Below, one piece after another: positions 17,075 through 24,445 of a stretch of 64,000 nt of DNA. Positions within the stretch are counted from its first letter, which is position 1. Each line of letters begins with the position of its first letter. Both the position numbers and the translations under genes were made by a program. This DNA comes from Parcubacteria group bacterium (GTDB taxonomy: Bacteria > Patescibacteriota > Minisyncoccia > Moranbacterales > UBA9337), in contig JBAZSW010000001.1 in assembly GCA_041662245.1 (NCBI GenBank), positions 119,757-183,756 of the forward strand. The letters run 5' to 3'. The notes under the pieces are model-generated. The model was given only the letters and a program-made list of their open reading frames with translations, was not told the DNA's origin and did no database searches.

Positions 17075-17193
17075 AGTCTTTGTTGGCTTTGGAATTGTAT
17101 TTTTTTAGTTTTTAAAATTGGGCTTAGTTTTTTACTAAGTCGAACATTAAAAATTATATTCCGCGATAGCTCAGTGGTAGAGCAGTTGGCTGT

Positions 17194-17758
17194 GAACACA
17201 ATCTTTTGTATAATTAATTTATATGAAAGATACAAGAAAATACACTGATCGTTCTGAATATTTAAAACAAGCTGTATCTAAAAGAAGAAAGAAAATAAGA
17301 GATATAGCAATTGAATATAAGGGCGATAAATGTTTTATCTGTGGTTATGACAAATGCAAAAATGCATTAGAATTTCATCATACCGACCCAGTGAAAAAAG
17401 AATTTGGATTATCTAAATCAGGATTAACTCGTAGCTGGGAACGTGTAAAAAATGAAATTGAGAAGTGTGTTTTAGTTTGTGCTAATTGCCATAGAGAATT
17501 ACATGACAAAAACGCAGCCCTCAGTAGAAATACTAAGGTGAAAATAAGGTGAATTGCTGGAAGTCTAAAATCTTTTTTCAGTGTAAAGATTACGATAATC
17601 AGCAGCCGAGCCCCGACGTGACGTCGAGGAAGGTTCAGAGACTATCCCTTCGGGGAGTACTTTCTCTTTAATTAGAGATGGGAAGCGCCTTATCTCATAA
17701 TCTTTTGTAAGAAATGAGAATGATATAGTCCACCCTTTTTGGAAACAAGAAGATAAGT
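17194..17758 (+). mobile_element. Group I self-splicing intron with HNH homing endonuclease ORF (ORF in P1 loop, catalytic core 17553-17758)
   Basis: Canonical group I core elements are present. R element GGTTCAGAGACTA is at 17631-17643. S element GATATAGTCC is at 17721-17730, forming P7 with AGACTA. The 5' exon ends in U and the intron ends with an omega-G. The HNH ORF is embedded upstream of the core. Confidence 0.75.
17223..17552 (+). CDS. HNH homing endonuclease (intron-encoded)
   Basis: Zinc-binding pairs CFICGYDKC and CANCHRELH. HNH motif EFHHTDP...N...H. The ORF lies inside the tRNA intron. Confidence 0.75.
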   Translation: MKDTRKYTDRSEYLKQAVSKRRKKIRDIAIEYKGDKCFICGYDKCKNALEFHHTDPVKKEFGLSKSGLTRSWERVKNEIEKCVLVCANCHRELHDKNAALSRNTKVKIR

Positions 17759-17792
17759 GTAACCAATTGGTCGGGGGTTCGAATCCCTCTCG

Positions 17793-18085
17793 CGGAGCAA
17801 ATTAAGAAAGATACCTGCAAAGGTATCTTTTTTAATTTGCTCCGCGAAGAAAGTGAATGGTTTCACTTTTGTGAGGGTTCGAAAGTCGGAGTGTTGTGTG
17901 AGTTTTTCTGTTTAGGCAGAAAAGGCAAACACCACGAGACGGGGTCGCGAAATTTTTACGTCAGGAAAAATATTTGTGACAGAATCCCTCTCGCGGAGCT
18001 GCGAAAAACTCAAAAAAGACTACCTTATCAGGATAATCTTTTTTTGTTTTGTATTTTTCCTAGGACCGTCCTAGAAATAGGTAGA
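17793..18085 (+). repeat. Direct repeat 1 (~290 bp) of island; begins at tRNA 3' end and contains a second copy of the tRNA 3' end (GAATCCCTCTCGCGGAGC at 17984-18001)
   Basis: Near-identical (~93%) to 22911-23203. It contains a terminator hairpin and an internal 18-nt duplicate of the tRNA T-loop/acceptor 3' strand. The ORF-track ORF 17837-18115 inside it is judged spurious. Confidence 0.8.
17807..17836 (+). terminator. Rho-independent terminator after tRNA 3' exon (inside direct repeat 1)
   Basis: Stem AAAGATACC / GGTATCTTT with loop TGCAAA, followed by a T-run. An identical hairpin lies in direct repeat 2 at 22921-22950. Confidence 0.6.
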
Positions 18086-18782
18086 AGTATGTATCTATTT
18101 ATGCTAAAATCATAACATATGAGCAGAAGAGAAAAAATAATTATAGGAGAGTATTATCATATTTTTAATCGTGGAGTGGAGAAGAGAAAAATATTTAATA
18201 ATAAAAATGATTATTTTCGTTTTTGCAATTCGATGATTTTTTTGAATACGGAAAAACCTTCTAAAATGTCTTTTGACAAATTTGATGATAATGAACGTCC
18301 TTCTGACAATGAGATGTTAGTAGATATTGTTGCGTACTGCTTAAATTCAAATCACTTTCATTGCATTTTAAAAGAGAAACGGGAAAATGGAATTGCGACT
18401 TTTATAAAAAAAGTTTGTACAAGTCATGCTATGTATTTTAATAAAAAATATGAAAGATCAGGAGTATTGTTTCAGGGAAGATTTAAATCGGTACATATAG
18501 ATTCAAATGATTTACTGTTGTATTTATCTGCCTATGTTAATTGCAATAGTCAGGTTCACAAAATAGAGGATGCTGAAAAATATCCTTGGTGTAGTTTTCC
18601 TGAGTATTTAGGCGGGCTTGGAATTGGATGTCAAAAGTCTATCATTCTCGATCAATTTAAAAGTTCAATTGATTATAAAACATTTTGTTTAGAAAAAGTT
18701 GATGGAATGATAAGTAGGAAGGATAATGAAAAATTATGTTTTGAATAGTCATAATTTCTAGGACCGTCCTAGCTAGTTAGTG
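18060..18782 (+). mobile_element. RayT/IS200-like HUH-Y1 transposase gene flanked by identical 15-bp perfect palindromes CTAGGACCGTCCTAG (REP/REPtron-like unit)
   Basis: Palindromes at 18060-18074 and 18768-18782 bracket the ORF at 18119-18748. A third copy lies at 23839-23853 and a degenerate copy in direct repeat 2 near 23176. Confidence 0.6.
18119..18748 (+). CDS. REP-associated tyrosine transposase RayT / IS200-like Y1 HUH transposase (COG1943-like)
   Basis: N-terminal YYHIFNRGVEKRKIFNNKNDYFRF matches the COG1943 pattern (YHV.NRGN.RQ.IF...D..F). HUH motif NHFHCIL. FQGRFKS. Catalytic Tyr region LYLSAYVNCN. Confidence 0.65.
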   Translation: MSRREKIIIGEYYHIFNRGVEKRKIFNNKNDYFRFCNSMIFLNTEKPSKMSFDKFDDNERPSDNEMLVDIVAYCLNSNHFHCILKEKRENGIATFIKKVCTSHAMYFNKKYERSGVLFQGRFKSVHIDSNDLLLYLSAYVNCNSQVHKIEDAEKYPWCSFPEYLGGLGIGCQKSIILDQFKSSIDYKTFCLEKVDGMISRKDNEKLCFE

Positions 18783-18784
18783 AA

Positions 18785-19336
18785 ATGGTTAAGCTGGGTG
18801 ATATTTGTGATATATATATTGGCGGGACACCATCAAGGAAAATTGGTAAATATTGGGGCGGAAAAAATCTCTGGGTTAAAATAAAAGATATGAAGAAGAA
18901 TGCTTCTTCTATAATGGATACGGAGGAAAAGATAACAGATGAGGGTATCAATAAGTCCAGCGTTAAGCTTCTCAAAAAAGGAACTTTATTGTTTAGTTTT
19001 AAATTAACAATAGGAAAGGTTGTTATTGCAGGAAGAGATCTCTATACAAACGAAGCTATCGCTGGTATAGTTCCGAAGGACGGTAAGGTTTTAATGAAAT
19101 ATTTATATTACATATTGCCTAGGTTAGATTATTTATCTTATTGTCAACGAGCAACGAAAGGTATGACTTTAAACAAAGAAATCTTAAATAGCCTGAGTAT
19201 ACCATTGCCTTCTGTTGCAGAACAAGAAAAAATAATAAAAAAGCTTGATGAAATAGAATTGAGAAAATATAAATATTTAGAGAATTTAAAAAATGCCACC
19301 GCTGAGCAAGATAGAGAAATTTTAAATATCTTGTAG
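18785..19336 (+). CDS. Type I restriction-modification specificity subunit HsdS-like, single target-recognition domain (orphan)
   Basis: LGDICDIYIGGTPSRK start. TRD core with NEAIAGIVP. C-terminal conserved region SIPLPSVAEQEKIIKKLDEIE (PLPPLAEQ-type). Only 183 aa. No hsdM/hsdR in the window. Confidence 0.65.
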   Translation: MVKLGDICDIYIGGTPSRKIGKYWGGKNLWVKIKDMKKNASSIMDTEEKITDEGINKSSVKLLKKGTLLFSFKLTIGKVVIAGRDLYTNEAIAGIVPKDGKVLMKYLYYILPRLDYLSYCQRATKGMTLNKEILNSLSIPLPSVAEQEKIIKKLDEIELRKYKYLENLKNATAEQDREILNIL

Positions 19337-19373
19337 CAGTATAAATTTTTTAATATTCAATTTATTTGTTATA

Positions 19374-20045
19374 ATGAAAAAAAGAAATAAATCAAAAACA
19401 AATATGAAAAAAAAATCATTAATCACGCATAGTCAACATTTTGTTCTTACAAATGATAAAATAATTCGTACCGCTCTTAAAGAAAAATTAGAGGAGTCTT
19501 ATTTTGGAATAAAAAATACTAAGATTATTGAAGAATTAGGCATTACTCATGGGGAGGCTCGTATTGACATAGCTGTTGTTAACGGTGTTATACATGGCTA
19601 TGAACTAAAGAGTGACAGGGACACATTAAAACGGTTGCCTGGTCAGATTGAAATATATAACACAGTTCTTGATAAGGTAACACTAGTGGTGGGAATGAAT
19701 CATTTGCATGAAGCGATGAAAATCGTTCCAGATTGGTGGGGTATAACAATTGCAAAAATAGTAAATTCAGATAGCGTAGTTTCTTTTTTTAATATTCGAG
19801 AACCAGAAGAAAATAAAAATCAAAACAGCGCTGCTGTTGCTGCACTGTTATGGAGAGAAGAAGCTCTCAAAATATTGGAGAATATAGGACAAGCCAAGGG
19901 GATGCAATCAAAAAGTAGAAAGGCTATATATGAAAAATTGGCTGATGTTTTAGAAAAAAAATCTTTAAATAAAATCGTTCGGGAACAGCTACGTACTAGG
20001 GTAAATTGGCGATCTGATTTGCAGTGCATACCAAGTGGTGGTTAA
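19374..20045 (+). CDS. PD-(D/E)xK-fold nuclease-like protein (sce7726-family-like)
   Basis: Motif GEARIDIAVVNGVIHGYELKSDRD (D ... E-x-K). Convergent with, and overlapping, a 372-aa partner gene. The family assignment comes from memory of family descriptions, not a search. The true start may be the second Met (MKKKSL, ~19404). Confidence 0.4.
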   Translation: MKKRNKSKTNMKKKSLITHSQHFVLTNDKIIRTALKEKLEESYFGIKNTKIIEELGITHGEARIDIAVVNGVIHGYELKSDRDTLKRLPGQIEIYNTVLDKVTLVVGMNHLHEAMKIVPDWWGITIAKIVNSDSVVSFFNIREPEENKNQNSAAVAALLWREEALKILENIGQAKGMQSKSRKAIYEKLADVLEKKSLNKIVREQLRTRVNWRSDLQCIPSGG

Positions 20046-21114
20046 TACCTGCTGTTAGCCATGTTTCAGTGCTTCCAGTGCCTTTAATTTCTGGGTTTAG
20101 TTGGTATTTTTCAAAATGTTTCCCCTTATCAAATATATACTTGTCGCCAATGCTAAAATTTTCTCCCATAAAAAGATCTACATCCTCTGATAGTAGTTTT
20201 GCATTGGCTAAATAGAGTTCATACTTTTGTTTTTTACCTTTCATGATTAGCCAATTACTTTCCAGTGTATATTTTATACTAGTGGTGGGAGGAAAGAATT
20301 GAAAAGATTCTTTGTATATTGGATGCTGAATTGTGTAATCTGCAAATATCGGATTTCTTTGCAGGGTTTTTGCGCTAACATAACCAAGCCAACCTATCCA
20401 ATCATGACGAGGAAGATAATTTTCTTCATCAAGTTTGCACTTGGATAAATCTAGGGGAAAAGCGCCACCTGCAAAAATAAATGATCTCCATTTTGATAGG
20501 TTGTGAATTTGCTGACTCTTAGTTATATATGTTTGATATTTGCCATCATTTTCTTCGACACTTTTAATATCTACTAATAGGTCAATATTCTTTTCTTCTA
20601 GATTGTAAGAAGTTAAAAAATCATTAATTTTTTTATTCAGCACATCTATGTCAGAGAAATCAGAACAAACTATTCGCAAGCACAAACCGTTGTTGTGTTT
20701 TTTTGCTAATAATCCGACGATATTTTTAATCTGAAGATCATCGTTAATGTTTATCACTGGAATCAAAACCATCCCGTTGGCACCTCCTTTTGTTAGTATT
20801 TTTTCAAAGCATGTTATTTTCAATGACGTGGTGTATAGGAGACTAAAATCAATAAATATTGGATCTTTTCCCCAAAACTTCAAAATTTCTTCTGAAATTT
20901 CAGGTATTTTTTCACTAAACGTTGCTATGACTTTATTAAATTTTTCCTCTTGAGTTTGTTCCGATGCTTCTTTTGTGCTTGATTTTGGCTTTGGCATTAC
21001 GAACTGAATTAGTGGAGTAATATATCTTTTACTTTCATCATTTAAAGCCTCTAGGGCTTTTTGCTCAGCACGTTTCCATTTTAATATTGGCACATAATGT
21101 TTTGCTTCAAACAT
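19996..21114 (-). CDS. Hypothetical 372-aa protein, possible Beta-protein (PF14350)/sce7725-family-like partner of the PD-(D/E)xK protein
   Basis: N-terminus MFEAKHYVPILKWKRAEQKALEAL resembles the YVPILK.K.GE..AL start I recall for Beta_protein/sce7725 families. Its 3' end overlaps the convergent gene at 19374-20045 by about 50 nt. This is an inference only. Confidence 0.3.
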   Translation of the reverse strand: MFEAKHYVPILKWKRAEQKALEALNDESKRYITPLIQFVMPKPKSSTKEASEQTQEEKFNKVIATFSEKIPEISEEILKFWGKDPIFIDFSLLYTTSLKITCFEKILTKGGANGMVLIPVININDDLQIKNIVGLLAKKHNNGLCLRIVCSDFSDIDVLNKKINDFLTSYNLEEKNIDLLVDIKSVEENDGKYQTYITKSQQIHNLSKWRSFIFAGGAFPLDLSKCKLDEENYLPRHDWIGWLGYVSAKTLQRNPIFADYTIQHPIYKESFQFFPPTTSIKYTLESNWLIMKGKKQKYELYLANAKLLSEDVDLFMGENFSIGDKYIFDKGKHFEKYQLNPEIKGTGSTETWLTAGINHHLVCTANQIANLP

Positions 21115-21115
21115 A

Positions 21116-22321
21116 CTAGTTAGTCCATTTTTCCTCAGGAAAATATTCTTTAACTTTTGCCTGATTTATAATGTTATTTAAATAAATATAATTACCTCCA
21201 GCGCGTCGCATTTTACCAGCAACGATAGCTATGTGTATTCCCAATTCCCTTGCTAGACTTTTTGCTGCCATAGAGTTAGGCATCAAACTAGCTGGGCTTA
21301 CCTCCCATCTACCCTCAGGAACGAGAGCTTCCGATGCTAATTTATCAGCTTCATCTTCCGTGATATTAATATCAGTATTATCTAAATCGTCATAGAAAAA
21401 ATCAGATCCTTGGTTGTAGTGAAGCGCAATATGTGCAAGTTCATGCATTAGGGTAAACCAAAAGTTATCAAGACGATTATGTCGGATTGTTAGTCCGATA
21501 ATAGGTTTATTTTTGTTTGTTAGAATTGTTGCACCATCCAGGTATGTTTGAGTGAAGTGAGGTTCTATTATTAAAATAATCCCATATTTTTTTAAAAAAT
21601 TACGAGCAGCAACAGGTCCATTTTCTCTTATGCTTAATTTTGCCAATTCTTGCATAAAGGTTAAATTTATTAACTCCGACTTAAATGGGGAAACATTTTT
21701 TATTTTGCTTGCTTTTCTTACTACAATAGTAGACCAAACAACGAGAGCATGTTTATCCATAGGTCGTGTGGATCTGTAGTTGGTTTTACGAAGCATTCCG
21801 GATAGGCATGCTGGGGAGCCCACAGGAGCAAAAAAATTTTCCATCACGGTTTTTATATCAGATATTGTAGATAATTTTTCTAAATATCCTCGCCTTATCA
21901 TTTCCTTTAATGGGAAACGGTTCCAGACAATATTTTCTGTATTTCTGAATTCGTCAGCTTCTTTTAATAGGACTTTTGCAGGAATACCTAATCCGGCTTC
22001 AAGAGCTCTTATCATTGAAAGAGTTAATTGTCTTTTGCGAGAGAGAATTTCTGAGACCTTGCTTCTGCTTCCGATATAAGGTACTAAATCTGATGGTTTT
22101 AAATTCTGTTGTTCCATTCTAAATAAGATCGCATCAATTGGATCTGGCAAAGACTCCGGAATTATTTTTGATTCATAATCCTTTATTAGTGTTATTAGGA
22201 GACTTAGTTTTTCACCATTCTCTGAGTTAGGATCGGGATTTTTGTCCATTAAATTCTCGACTAACTTTATAGCCTCTTGATAATCTTCTTCAGTTTTTAT
22301 AACCTTGATTTTAGTTGTCAT
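21116..22321 (-). CDS. HTH (XRE-like) + ImmA/IrrE-family zinc metallopeptidase fusion; HigA-type antitoxin partner of HigB
   Basis: HEXXH motif in MHELAHIALH with downstream FYDD (COG2856-like). N-terminal helix-turn-helix region. It lies 15 nt downstream of the HigB-like gene on the same strand. Confidence 0.65.
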   Translation of the reverse strand: MTTKIKVIKTEEDYQEAIKLVENLMDKNPDPNSENGEKLSLLITLIKDYESKIIPESLPDPIDAILFRMEQQNLKPSDLVPYIGSRSKVSEILSRKRQLTLSMIRALEAGLGIPAKVLLKEADEFRNTENIVWNRFPLKEMIRRGYLEKLSTISDIKTVMENFFAPVGSPACLSGMLRKTNYRSTRPMDKHALVVWSTIVVRKASKIKNVSPFKSELINLTFMQELAKLSIRENGPVAARNFLKKYGIILIIEPHFTQTYLDGATILTNKNKPIIGLTIRHNRLDNFWFTLMHELAHIALHYNQGSDFFYDDLDNTDINITEDEADKLASEALVPEGRWEVSPASLMPNSMAAKSLARELGIHIAIVAGKMRRAGGNYIYLNNIINQAKVKEYFPEEKWTN

Positions 22322-22336
22322 AGTATTTTCTGGTTA

Positions 22337-22615
22337 TTACCAGCTCATATATTCATTATGTGTGCCGGCATTCATTATTAGGACCGCTTCGTATGGGTAG
22401 TTGATCTTAGTTTTTAGTCTGTATTTAACTCCTTTTAAATTAAATATCACAGTATTGTCTGCTAAAAAACTCGCACTAGCATAGCGCTGCTTGATATCTT
22501 GTGGCGTGCACCACCTTGCCATTGCTACTTCGGCTTCCCAAGCGTCTACCTGTGAACGGACATCAGCGTGCTTTTGCTTGAAAGTATGTAATTTTTCTTT
22601 ACCAAGGATATTCAT
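22337..22615 (-). CDS. higB: HigB-family type II toxin (RelE/ParE superfamily)
   Basis: MNILGKEKLHTFKQKHADVRSQVDAWEAEVAMARWCTPQDIKQRYASASFLADNTVIFNLKGVKYRLKTKINY matches the HigB pattern (KHPDAR..L.AWY.EV..A.W..P.D.K..Y.SAS...DN.VVFNI.GNKYRL). The ORF-track start 22642 is 9 codons upstream. The internal Met at 22615 fits HigB homolog length. Confidence 0.75.
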   Translation of the reverse strand: MNILGKEKLHTFKQKHADVRSQVDAWEAEVAMARWCTPQDIKQRYASASFLADNTVIFNLKGVKYRLKTKINYPYEAVLIMNAGTHNEYMSW

Positions 22616-22634
22616 TATTATTGACTGTATAATT

Positions 22635-22651
22635 GTTCCCATTATGGGAAC
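22635..22651. promoter_or_regulatory. Perfect inverted repeat GTTCCCAT-T-ATGGGAAC immediately upstream of higB; candidate HigA operator
   Basis: 8-bp arms of perfect dyad symmetry about 20 bp upstream of the proposed higB start. Confidence 0.4.
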
Positions 22652-22910
22652 ATAATATCATGTGACGAATGAGTTGTCAAGATATGAAAAAATAGGTCTT
22701 TATTGAGCTTTTTTGTTAGCTTTCAAATTTTGTGCATAGTCGCTTCAACTTTCCCGTATTAGGCAAATCCGTTACGTTTTCTTGATTGTTTGATAAGTGG
22801 GCAAATAAGAGTTAATTGGGCTACTCGAGATTAATTAACCTAATCTGTCACTGTGGCAGTTTGTTACTTCTTGTTTCTTGAAACAGGTTCGAACTTCGTC
22901 CAAGATTCGG

Positions 22911-23203
22911 AGCAAATTAAGAAAGATACCTGCAAAGGTATCTTTTTTAATTTTCTCCGCGAAGAAAGTGAATGGTTTCACTTTTGTGAGGGTTCGAAAG
23001 TTGGAGTGTTGTGTGAGTTTTTCTGTTTAAACAGAAAAGGCGAACACCACGAGACGGGGTCGCGAAATTTTTACGTCAGGAAAAATATTTGTGACCAAAT
23101 CTCTCTCGCGGAGCTGCGAAAAACTCAAAAAAGACTACCTTATCAGGATAGTCTTTTTTCGTCTCATTTATTTAAGGACCGTCTTAGTCGATTAGTTTTT
23201 TAA
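22911..23203 (+). repeat. Direct repeat 2 of island (copy of 17793-18085, ~93% identical)
   Basis: Shares the start GGAGCAAATTAAGAAAGATACCTGCAAAGGTATCTTTTTTAATT and the internal CTCGCGGAGCTGCGAAAAACTCAAAAAAGACTACCTTATCAGGATA block. The ORF 22853-23203 predicted inside it is judged spurious. Confidence 0.8.
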
Positions 23204-23403
23204 TTTGTATTAGTTGTGTTATACTATATGTAATGGTTGAAGGGTGCATTGTTGACTAAATTGAATTTTTGTATTATTATATAAAATCAATTATTATCAT
23301 AAAAATATGTTTAAATTTTTGGGTTTAAAAAAGAATAAAAAGGACTTTCAGGCTGTTGCAAGGAAGCAATTAAAAAAGAACAAGGCAGTTCTAAAGTCTT
23401 TGC

Positions 23404-23820
23404 GTGATTATGACGAAGGAAAAAAAGAAATTTCAACAACTAACGTCAGAAAACATTTGCAACATATACAAGCTTCTCTATAAAGAGGGGCTTGTTTCTT
23501 TTCCGGTAGAAGAATGTGTTACCAATAAGATTGAAGCCCTTATTTCAAGTGTAAATAGTGTTTATTTTGGAAAAGATATATATCCATCTCATGGAGAAAA
23601 AGCAGTAGCACATCTTTATTTTATTATAAAAGATCATATATTTGTTGATGGAAACAAGCGGACAGCTTGTCTTTCTTTTTCTGTTTTGTGCGAATTAAAT
23701 GATTTGAATCCGAAATATAAGAATTTTACATTAGATGAGTTAGCTGTTCTTCTGGAGGATTATAAAGGGAAAAATCACCAAGTATTGATTAAGGAAGTTG
23801 CCAAACTTTTATTTAATTAA
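23404..23820 (+). CDS. doc: Doc (death-on-curing) family toxin, Fic fold
   Basis: Doc/Fic motif HIFVDGNKRTA (H.F.DGNKRT). The likely ATG start is at 23410 (the track start is a GTG). Confidence 0.7.
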   Translation: MIMTKEKKKFQQLTSENICNIYKLLYKEGLVSFPVEECVTNKIEALISSVNSVYFGKDIYPSHGEKAVAHLYFIIKDHIFVDGNKRTACLSFSVLCELNDLNPKYKNFTLDELAVLLEDYKGKNHQVLIKEVAKLLFN

Positions 23821-23838: not shown

Positions 23839-23853
23839 CTAGGACCGTCCTAG
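23839..23853. repeat. Third copy of 15-bp palindrome CTAGGACCGTCCTAG (REP-like)
   Basis: Identical to copies at 18060-18074 and 18768-18782. It shares the extended flank AATTTCTAGGACCGTCCTAGCTA with copy 2. Confidence 0.7.
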
Positions 23854-24400: not shown

Positions 24401-24445
24401 CCCACCGCGGAAAACCTTCCGTTTCGGTGGGTTTTCTTTTTGAAG
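24401..24445 (+). terminator. Rho-independent terminator
   Basis: CCCACCGCGGAAAACCTTCCGTTTCGGTGGG hairpin followed by TTTTCTTTTT. Confidence 0.65.

Follow-up and report, generated by a model that had tools for sequence, protein, structure and literature searches.

Three copies of a 15-nt palindrome lie close together in a stretch of Patescibacteria DNA, two of them on either side of a gene for a Y1 (single-tyrosine) transposase, and the locus raises the question of what gene and palindrome have to do with each other. The stretch, here called the window, is the whole 64,000 nucleotides (64 kb) analysed from a Parcubacteria group bacterium (assembly GCA_041662245.1, contig JBAZSW010000001.1, positions 119,757 to 183,756 of the forward strand), and positions are counted from its first letter. 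An earlier note on this DNA had read the locus as REPtron-like, i.e. as a transposase gene of the RayT type (REP-associated tyrosine transposase, RAYT) together with the repetitive extragenic palindromes (REPs) which it mobilises. Our analysis supports this reading, and we consider it probable that the window holds a REPtron-like unit, in which a low-copy gene for a RayT-type Y1 (HUH) endonuclease/transferase of single-stranded DNA is flanked by its cognate short palindrome. The evidence is computational and consists of the Y1_Tnp match, the RayT-like fold and the catalytic residues of the protein, a family-wide association of gene and palindrome, a concerted and lineage-specific change of the palindromes, and their intergenic dispersal in related genomes.

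The palindrome, CTAGGACCGTCCTAG, has three exact copies in the window (coordinates in Table 1). The first and third lie where the earlier note had put them, while the second is at 18758-18772, the end coordinate given for it, 18782, having been 10 nt too far. The first two do bracket the Y1 open reading frame (ORF), and the third does follow the doc gene, at the distances listed in Table 1. In 100 dinucleotide-preserving shuffles the mean number of matches was 0.02, and none of the shuffles reached the 6 strand-matches observed. The sequence is built as CTAG-GAC-C-GTC-CTAG, with 7-nt arms round a central C. Being of odd length it is not the perfect palindrome that it had been called, as its reverse complement differs from it at the central base; in all three exact copies this C is on the coding strand. 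Folded as single-stranded DNA, each exact copy forms a hairpin of -3.6 to -3.7 kcal/mol, with 6 bp in the stem and 3 nt in the loop. Copies 1 and 2 together make a 19-nt inverted repeat (I21), CTAGGACCGTCCTAGAAAT / ATTTCTAGGACCGTCCTAG, with one central mismatch; their 4-nt inner flanks are inverted, yet the central base is the same on one strand. Copies 2 and 3 do share an extended identical flank, of 24 nt rather than 23 (TAATTTCTAGGACCGTCCTAGCTA; repeat family D2, 27 of 28 positions alike). The decayed copy suspected near 23176 was found as TAAGGACCGTCTTAG, the sole additional site in the window with up to three mismatches to CTAGGACCGTCCTAG; it has three, and its fold (-0.4 kcal/mol) amounts to no stable hairpin.

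The gene between copies 1 and 2 is intact, and its 209-aa product is 100% identical to an NCBI protein of a 'Parcubacteria group bacterium' metagenome-assembled genome (MAG). Checked against Pfam PF01797 (Y1_Tnp), as the earlier note had proposed, the protein scored 31.6 bits (gathering cut-off 23), and all 96 of its aligned relatives matched this family as well. All 96 aligned sequences have H79, Y139 and N143, and at least 90% of them have H81. The protein has the HUH motif and, in its predicted structure, the ferredoxin-like HUH fold, in which one catalytic tyrosine stands on a C-terminal helix. Its AlphaFold2 (AF2) model (pLDDT 91.6) shows in addition an extra C-terminal helical region at about residues 160-209, and a fold search of the PDB with this model gave as top match 4ER8, E. 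coli RayT with its REP hairpin (E 2.4e-7, TM 0.71 on the target, 14% identity), followed by the TnpA proteins of IS608 and ISDra2. The Y motif reads Y139-V-N-C-N143-S. In class 2 of the TnpA(Y1) proteins, i.e. TnpA(REP)/RAYT, the motif is Y-x3-N-P, and in class 1, IS200, it is Y-x3-Q (PMC6006769). The window protein has the class 2 TnpA(REP)-type spacing and clearly not that of IS200, though in this family S or D stands in place of the P. More than 2,000 relatives were found, chiefly in Moranbacteria and other Patescibacteria; protein clusters are on 1-3 contigs each, and many members of the family are on short contigs. The window holds no second Y1 gene, and no tnpB was found among the neighbour genes. 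Carriage by phages was considered and rejected, since no relative of the Y1 protein was found among IMG/VR viral contigs and the 9 viral matches of the 15-mer look like chance in GC-rich DNA.

The association of gene and palindrome was tested in 80 metagenome loci that had been picked by protein alignment alone and in which 66 Y1 genes were testable. With a fixed criterion (the same palindrome before and after the ORF, its arms 8 nt or longer) we observed such flanking palindromes at 38 of the 66 Y1 genes and at none of the 284 other ORFs of the same loci, which served as controls. The arrangement of palindrome, Y1 gene and palindrome is thus a feature of the whole family. The exact or near-exact 15-mer flanks the closest relatives only (at least 62% identity), and variants compensated by paired changes, CAAGGACCGTCCTTG and CGAGGACCGTCCTCG, also lie beside them. 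Most other relatives (41-53% identity) have a different palindrome of 21-27 nt, such as ACTTGGAGGCGAAGCCTCCAAGT or TTGACGAAGGCTAAGCCTTCGTCAA, with arms of 10-12 nt in most relatives as against 7 nt in the window, and another lineage has the type ACTTGGAGG...CCTCCAAGT. In these more distant relatives the copy before the gene is about 15-100 nt away from it (commonly 20-50) and the copy after it 5-50 nt. One locus, L124, has two Y1 paralogues, 65% identical, each with a palindrome of its own, a behaviour which has been described for tnpA(REP) genes (PMC6006769). The sequence of the palindrome thus changes from lineage to lineage, as it does in REP/RAYT co-evolution. As the sites had been chosen for being palindromic, the covariation count does not test pairing independently.

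Many relatives carry their lineage's own palindrome also in frame inside the Y1 gene, at two fixed sites, one ahead of the HUH motif, with its centre at about +180 to +210 nt (aa ~55-63), and the other just past the catalytic helix, at about +430 to +480 nt (aa ~147-156). Such internal copies were seen in L152, L164, L167, L146, L174 and others, where they encode peptides such as QLGGETAKS or QLGGLTAKL. In L152, TGGCGGT(GAG/CTC)ACCGCCA stands at -58, +173, +452 and +662, and between L152 and L146 paired stem substitutions are seen at all four sites of the lineage. The loop orientation sometimes flips between sites, so that the loop codon alone changes. Nearer to the window protein, L107 and L108 (62-63% identical to it) have the first internal copy, carrying TGCAAGGACCGTCCTTGCA, centred at about +180 nt, where the window has taatGAACGTCCTtc. 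The Y1 gene of the window would retain at most an eroded remnant here (18289-18303), and to take taatGAACGTCCTtc as an eroded internal copy is a possible but weak reading, as codon conservation alone could explain it. In-frame REPs within tnpA(REP) genes have already been described for subclass 2.4 of TnpA(Y1) (PMC6006769); the internal copies found here are therefore a parallel in another subfamily and not a new phenomenon.

Outside the window, the 15-mer was searched for as CTAGGACSGTCCTAG in 185,579 species genomes, a collection that does not contain the source genome. It turned up in 93 stretches of genome, of which over half are from Patescibacteria of many candidate classes and often with several copies per genome. 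At the Patescibacteria loci 57 of 64 copies (89%) are intergenic, though 81% of that DNA is taken up by ORFs of 100 aa or more. In the Parcubacteria genome M6-OD1-3, which was taken as a stand-in for the source genome and whose Y1 protein is 77% identical to that of the window, the exact copies number at least 15, spread over 5 contigs. The Y1 gene of M6-OD1-3 is bracketed by two of these, and the palindromes far outnumber the gene. In related Patescibacteria genomes the exact 15-mer is a dispersed and intergenic element. M6-OD1-3 also has places (L089, 4870-4908 and 5653-5760; L011, L013, L038) where the palindrome and a few flanking bases are tandemly duplicated with periods of 24, 26, 32 and 58 nt, which suggests insertion beside an existing copy or else replication slippage. 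The palindrome is longer in many genomes, where complementary flanks peculiar to the lineage extend it (tccc...ggga, actag...ctagt). Several Saccharibacteria genomes (L030, L046, L072, L088; L012, L040, L050, L054, L080) hold 5-6 copies within longer genome-specific repeats such as tagtttaCTAGGACCGTCCTAGtaatttta, and no Y1 gene was detected within the stretches examined around any of these copies. The exact 15-mer core is, furthermore, found flanking Y1 genes of two additional clades, whose proteins have 31-46% identity with that of the window (L048, L053, L044, L098, L084). One of the two clades (including L048, L053, L044 and L098) has subclass 2.1-like motifs, LFEGRF and YIHLNP, and the other YINVLNP. 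That divergent clades have the core in common while closer relatives differ may be due to shared ancestry, capture or convergence.

When compared with RayT/TnpA(REP) of E. coli (YafM, 4ER8), the system is similar in the Y1 HUH fold, in an apparently low-copy gene that has a short palindrome on either side, in the solo intergenic copies of this palindrome seen in related genomes and in its covariation with the lineage of the protein. It differs in that the palindrome of the window is symmetric, odd in length and without bulges or a GT[AG]G foot, in having tens of copies at most where E. coli has hundreds of REPs, and in a protein of 14% identity with extra C-terminal helices. The orientation of the flanking copies is not fixed here, whereas in classical REPtrons the flanking REPs are consistently inverted. 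The gene is flanked on both sides by the palindrome (copies starting at 18060 and 18758), as a tnpA(REP) gene of a REPtron is by its cognate REP (Ton-Hoang et al. 2012; Nunvar et al. 2010). A canonical REP has a 5' GT[AG]G foot and an imperfect 20-40-nt stem-loop (PMC6006769); this is not the anatomy of the 15-mer of the window, nor of the symmetric 21-27-nt palindromes with varied ends in its relatives. The statement of the earlier note that RayT proteins mobilise REP hairpins 'of exactly this kind' went too far, since there is no GTAG/GTGG foot, the symmetry is near-perfect and the hairpin is short and weak. Taken as a REPtron, the unit would be a non-canonical variant, without the GTAG foot, strand-symmetric and low in copy number.

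Parallels are also found among subclasses of TnpA(Y1). In subclass 2.4 (Quentin et al. 2018), which is Bertels group 4 and occurs in Cyanobacteria and Bacteroidetes, REPs flank the gene and are also present in frame within it (PMC6006769), and repeat numbers are modest, with about 14 occurrences of the flanking 16-mer (PMC5581495). Its symmetric 'double foot' REPs and its in-gene copies resemble what we noticed in the relatives of the window gene. However, the motifs here are NH[FY]H, FQGRF and YVN[CL]N[SD], as against NH[IFV]H, WQ and YIxNNP; the internal copies here lie before the HUH motif and after the Y motif, not between the two; the GTAG/CTAC foot is absent; and the window gene itself has at most one eroded internal copy. 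With subclass 2.1/TIRYT (Bertels group 1) the proteins share NH[YF]H, F[QE] in place of WQ, a length of little over 200 aa and a helical C-terminal extension. Judged by these motifs, the window protein appears nearer to subclass 2.1. Subclass 2.1 has been reported without REP-like sequences and TIRYTs have terminal inverted repeats, GGGG[AT][CG]A[CG] (PMC6006769), whereas the genes here are flanked by hairpin-forming palindromes. Rickettsia palindromic elements are likewise short palindromic repeats tolerated in frame in coding sequences (PMC3733652), as are the in-frame palindromes in relatives of the window gene; but here the host gene is that of the presumed mobilising enzyme, and the copies occupy two fixed positions across lineages and change together with the flanking ones.

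Could the unit be a mobile element as a whole? The 713 bp from 18060 to 18772 might be an autonomous insertion sequence (IS) of the IS200 kind, in which the hairpins are the left and right ends, the whole unit moves by single-strand 'peel and paste' and the solo palindromes are footprints or miniature derivatives. Like the TnpA proteins of IS200/IS605 (IS608, ISDra2), the window protein has the Y1 HUH core fold, and a unit of ~0.7 kb with one Y1 gene, whose subterminal hairpins share a strand and have C at their centres, would suit such an element. So would the breakpoints, as the M6-OD1-3 locus L089 is homologous to the window from 18060 onwards, which is precisely where the left palindrome starts, and L104 (Y1 88% identical) has the unit but beyond the right palindrome different DNA, its homology ending at 18778. 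The occurrence of many family members on short contigs may be counted on the same side. However, an IS is expected to leave near-identical copies, and we found one gene in 64 kb, protein clusters on 1-3 contigs and, as the sole locus with two genes, the 65% identical paralogues of L124 with their different palindromes. The Y motif is Y-x3-N and not Y-x3-Q, the protein is longer, RayT is its best structural match, and among the NCBIfam models matched by the 96 relatives at E <= 0.001 there was none besides REP_Tyr_transpos, IS200-type transposases included. The two hairpins are identical where IS200/IS605 elements have distinct left and right ends, there is no tnpB, the solo palindromes far outnumber the gene in M6-OD1-3, and the spacer from the stop codon to the right palindrome is not conserved (9 nt in the window, 23 nt in L089). 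At 49% identity, L114 still has the same chromosomal neighbourhood. Thus none of the marks of IS200/IS605 membership, namely near-identical copies, Y-x3-Q, distinct end hairpins and tnpB, was observed, and we consider a self-contained IS unlikely. A different possibility is that the palindromes are no substrates of cleavage and transfer at all and are ordinary regulatory sites in double-stranded DNA or RNA hairpins, such as operators of a dimeric protein (a host factor or the Y1 protein), terminators or mRNA stabilisers. Their position just before the start codon and just after stops would fit an operator or terminator, copy 3 alone was flagged as weakly terminator-like, and a shared host factor could explain why three divergent Y1 clades have the 15-mer core in common. 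The symmetry, moreover, reaches the centre-adjacent positions, which are unable to pair in a hairpin and are nevertheless complementary in 69% and 86%, a feature that the sites of dimeric proteins typically have. A regulatory role, though, gives no ready reason why in-gene copies at two fixed positions change together with the flanking ones, and it sits poorly with the dispersed intergenic copies and tandem palindrome-plus-flank duplications of M6-OD1-3 and with a full catalytic HUH/Y set conserved in the 96 relatives. Most copies (flanks of ~100 inspected) are not followed by a T-run, the promoter scan gave counts equal to the shuffled background and the terminator scan was likewise not informatively above it, and for the 15-mer as a known operator, e.g. 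a LexA box of Patescibacteria, we found no supporting literature. Taken together, a purely regulatory role is in our view improbable. That a short palindrome recurred by chance, or that the assembly is at fault, deserves next to no credence: the element is short (15 nt), and the region contains a 266-nt direct repeat inside which a Logan contig breaks, but none of the 100 shuffles reached the count where 0.02 was expected, the independent assembly L001 (window 18006-22937, 4.9 kb) reproduces copies 1 and 2, and independent genomes share the architecture.

Several observations, on the other hand, weigh against a REPtron-like unit itself. All copies of the palindrome in the window are inside 5.8 kb, and the other 58 kb (GC 33%) hold none, not even of its 9-nt core. 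The hairpin of CTAGGACCGTCCTAG is short and weak and is without the GT[AG]G foot of canonical REPs; of the guide-plus-hairpin structure which the earlier note had proposed to look for, the fold gave the weak hairpin, and the guide or cleavage motif known beside the hairpins of IS608 and RayT did not appear, the flanks of ~100 copies and positions 11-14 from the centre having yielded no conserved tetranucleotide and just A/T-richness. Taken over the family, the flanking copies have no uniform orientation to each other (the same in 24 cases, complementary in 20); as the palindrome is almost symmetric, this orientation is poorly defined. With the complementarity of the unpairable centre-adjacent positions a dimeric site in double-stranded DNA fits equally well. 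On the side of the protein, PDB sequence searches with the single protein and with the 96-sequence profile found nothing relevant, and the score against NCBIfam NF047646, the REP-associated tyrosine transposase equivalog (REP_Tyr_transpos), was 23.6 bits, well short of its 80-bit cut-off. This model is matched, weakly, by 94 of the 96 relatives (best E 8.8e-9), and by these scores the window protein is a relative of the equivalog family but no member of it.

If the palindromes and the Y1 protein do form a REPtron-like unit, its way of working may be pictured by homology to E. coli RayT and IS608 TnpA, from which we infer hairpin binding, cleavage by Tyr139, strand transfer and any mobility. 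Where the DNA is single-stranded, e.g. on the lagging-strand template, the palindrome would fold into a small hairpin, and since it is symmetric but for the central base, either strand would yield almost the same one. The enzyme would bind this hairpin and cut nearby with Tyr139, the metal being held by His79 and His81, and would then rejoin the ends, whereby palindrome units would be copied, moved or exchanged and the copies in a genome kept alike. The Y1 gene, for its part, seems to stay in place, and it is the short palindromes that seem to spread into intergenic DNA.

The unit is located downstream of rpoD and a tRNA-Asn gene, and L114 has rpoD, tRNA-Asn, Y1 and palindrome as well as the same terminator as the window at 24401-24441, a match of neighbourhoods which argues for long residence of the Y1 gene at this site. 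Accessory modules have gathered here in the window, comprising the 266-nt direct repeat, a truncated HsdS, an sce7726/Beta-protein pair, HigB with an M78 antitoxin-like gene, and Phd/Doc (Table 1). At the second repeat, the homology of L104 ends at 23187, the end of the decayed copy, and L104 has the same C>T variant as that copy, upstream of its Y1 gene. As the breakpoints of homology with L089 and L104 coincide with palindromes, the palindromes mark the junctions of modules. Whether the island between copies 2 and 3 is itself a palindrome-bounded insertion was also considered and not accepted, as the downstream flanks of L104 and copy 3 share just CTATTT, which is too little. Nor did we accept the Logan contig L001 as an excised circle, because its ends fall within the 266-nt repeat, one in each copy, which is what a break in the assembly graph should give.

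Table 1. The Y1 gene, the copies of the palindrome and the accessory genes in the window
Feature	Position	Strand	Remarks
Palindrome copy 1 (CTAGGACCGTCCTAG)	18060-18074	.	44 nt 5' of the Y1 ATG; directly after 266-nt direct repeat D1 (17793-18058)
Y1 HUH gene, RayT/TnpA(REP) type, intact, 209 aa	18119-18748	+	H79-F-H81; Y139-x3-N143
Possible eroded in-frame internal palindrome taatGAACGTCCTtc	18289-18303	+	encodes NERPS; 9/15 positions match
Palindrome copy 2	18758-18772	.	9 nt past the Y1 stop; 12 nt before the truncated HsdS ORF
Accessory block between copy 2 and second 266-nt repeat	18785-22642		truncated type I restriction-modification specificity subunit (183 aa, single target-recognition domain); sce7726-family protein overlapping convergent 'Beta protein' (PF14350); M78-peptidase/helix-turn-helix antitoxin-like protein with HigB
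Decayed copy TAAGGACCGTCTTAG	23173-23187	.	directly after second 266-nt repeat (22908-23173)
Phd-like ORF and Fic/Doc ORF	23307-23820		after second 266-nt repeat
Palindrome copy 3	23839-23853	.	18 nt past the stop of the Fic/Doc ORF (23404-23820)

Some features of the tRNA-Asn gene and of the direct repeat may be recorded here. The tRNA-Asn(GTT) gene at 17159-17798 is split by a 566-nt group I intron (17194-17759; Rfam RF00028, 77.7 bits), which holds an HNH endonuclease ORF (17223-17552) and leaves exons at about 17159-17193 and 17760-17798; it was missed by ARAGORN and by the Rfam scan at gathering threshold, and its orthologues in L114 and M6-OD1-3 (L013) are intronless. The two copies of the 266-nt repeat (17793-18058 and 22908-23173) are 94% identical, and each ends just before a palindrome copy. 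The repeat holds an insertion of ~201 nt, at whose borders stand CGGAGC repeats that stem from the 3' end of the tRNA. The inner 162 nt of this insertion (17838-17999) begin and end with 9-nt terminal inverted repeats, GCTCCGCGA/TCGCGGAGC, and their folding energy is -62.8 kcal/mol (z = -5.7). The insertion is absent from the homologous junction of L104 and has no match in Rfam; it could be an element like a miniature inverted-repeat transposable element, or else an RNA with structure. The tRNA-Asn ends with an 18-nt sequence, GAATCCCTCTCGCGGAGC, which stands at three places in the window (17781-17798, 17982-17999 and 23097-23114). These look like att-type repeats from successive integrations at the tRNA, and no integrase gene was found between them.

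For the window, then, the result is mostly confirmatory, as it is a recognisable kind of element and no new mechanism that we describe. Beyond it, we put forward a wider proposal, as a tentative possibility which we would not call likely, that the Patescibacteria have a distinct, strand-symmetric REP/RAYT lineage, in which three deeply divergent Y1 clades, from several candidate classes, use one and the same 15-nt core, CTAGGACSGTCCTAG, in-gene copies sit at two fixed positions and all copies co-change by paired compensatory substitutions. If this is true, the concerted change of the copies would imply active replacement of palindrome copies by the enzyme, a homing-like conversion, and not independent mutation, and the same enzyme could also shuffle the modules of accessory genes beside the tRNA-Asn, given that the breakpoints are at palindromes. 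REP/RAYT, familiar from E. coli and Pseudomonas, is the best example of a domesticated transposase that keeps a population of short repeats, and to our knowledge such systems have been studied almost exclusively in Proteobacteria and Cyanobacteria; in the literature searched there was no account of REP/RAYT in the Candidate Phyla Radiation, nor of the 15-mer motif. A REPtron-like unit at this locus would explain a recurring intergenic motif in MAGs of Patescibacteria which could otherwise be mistaken for an operator or a terminator, and would extend REP/RAYT to very small, streamlined genomes. The family would, moreover, offer a substrate that is symmetric and unusually simple, and its enzymes and palindromes, co-varying as pairs, would form a natural series useful for learning how Y1 enzymes read hairpins.

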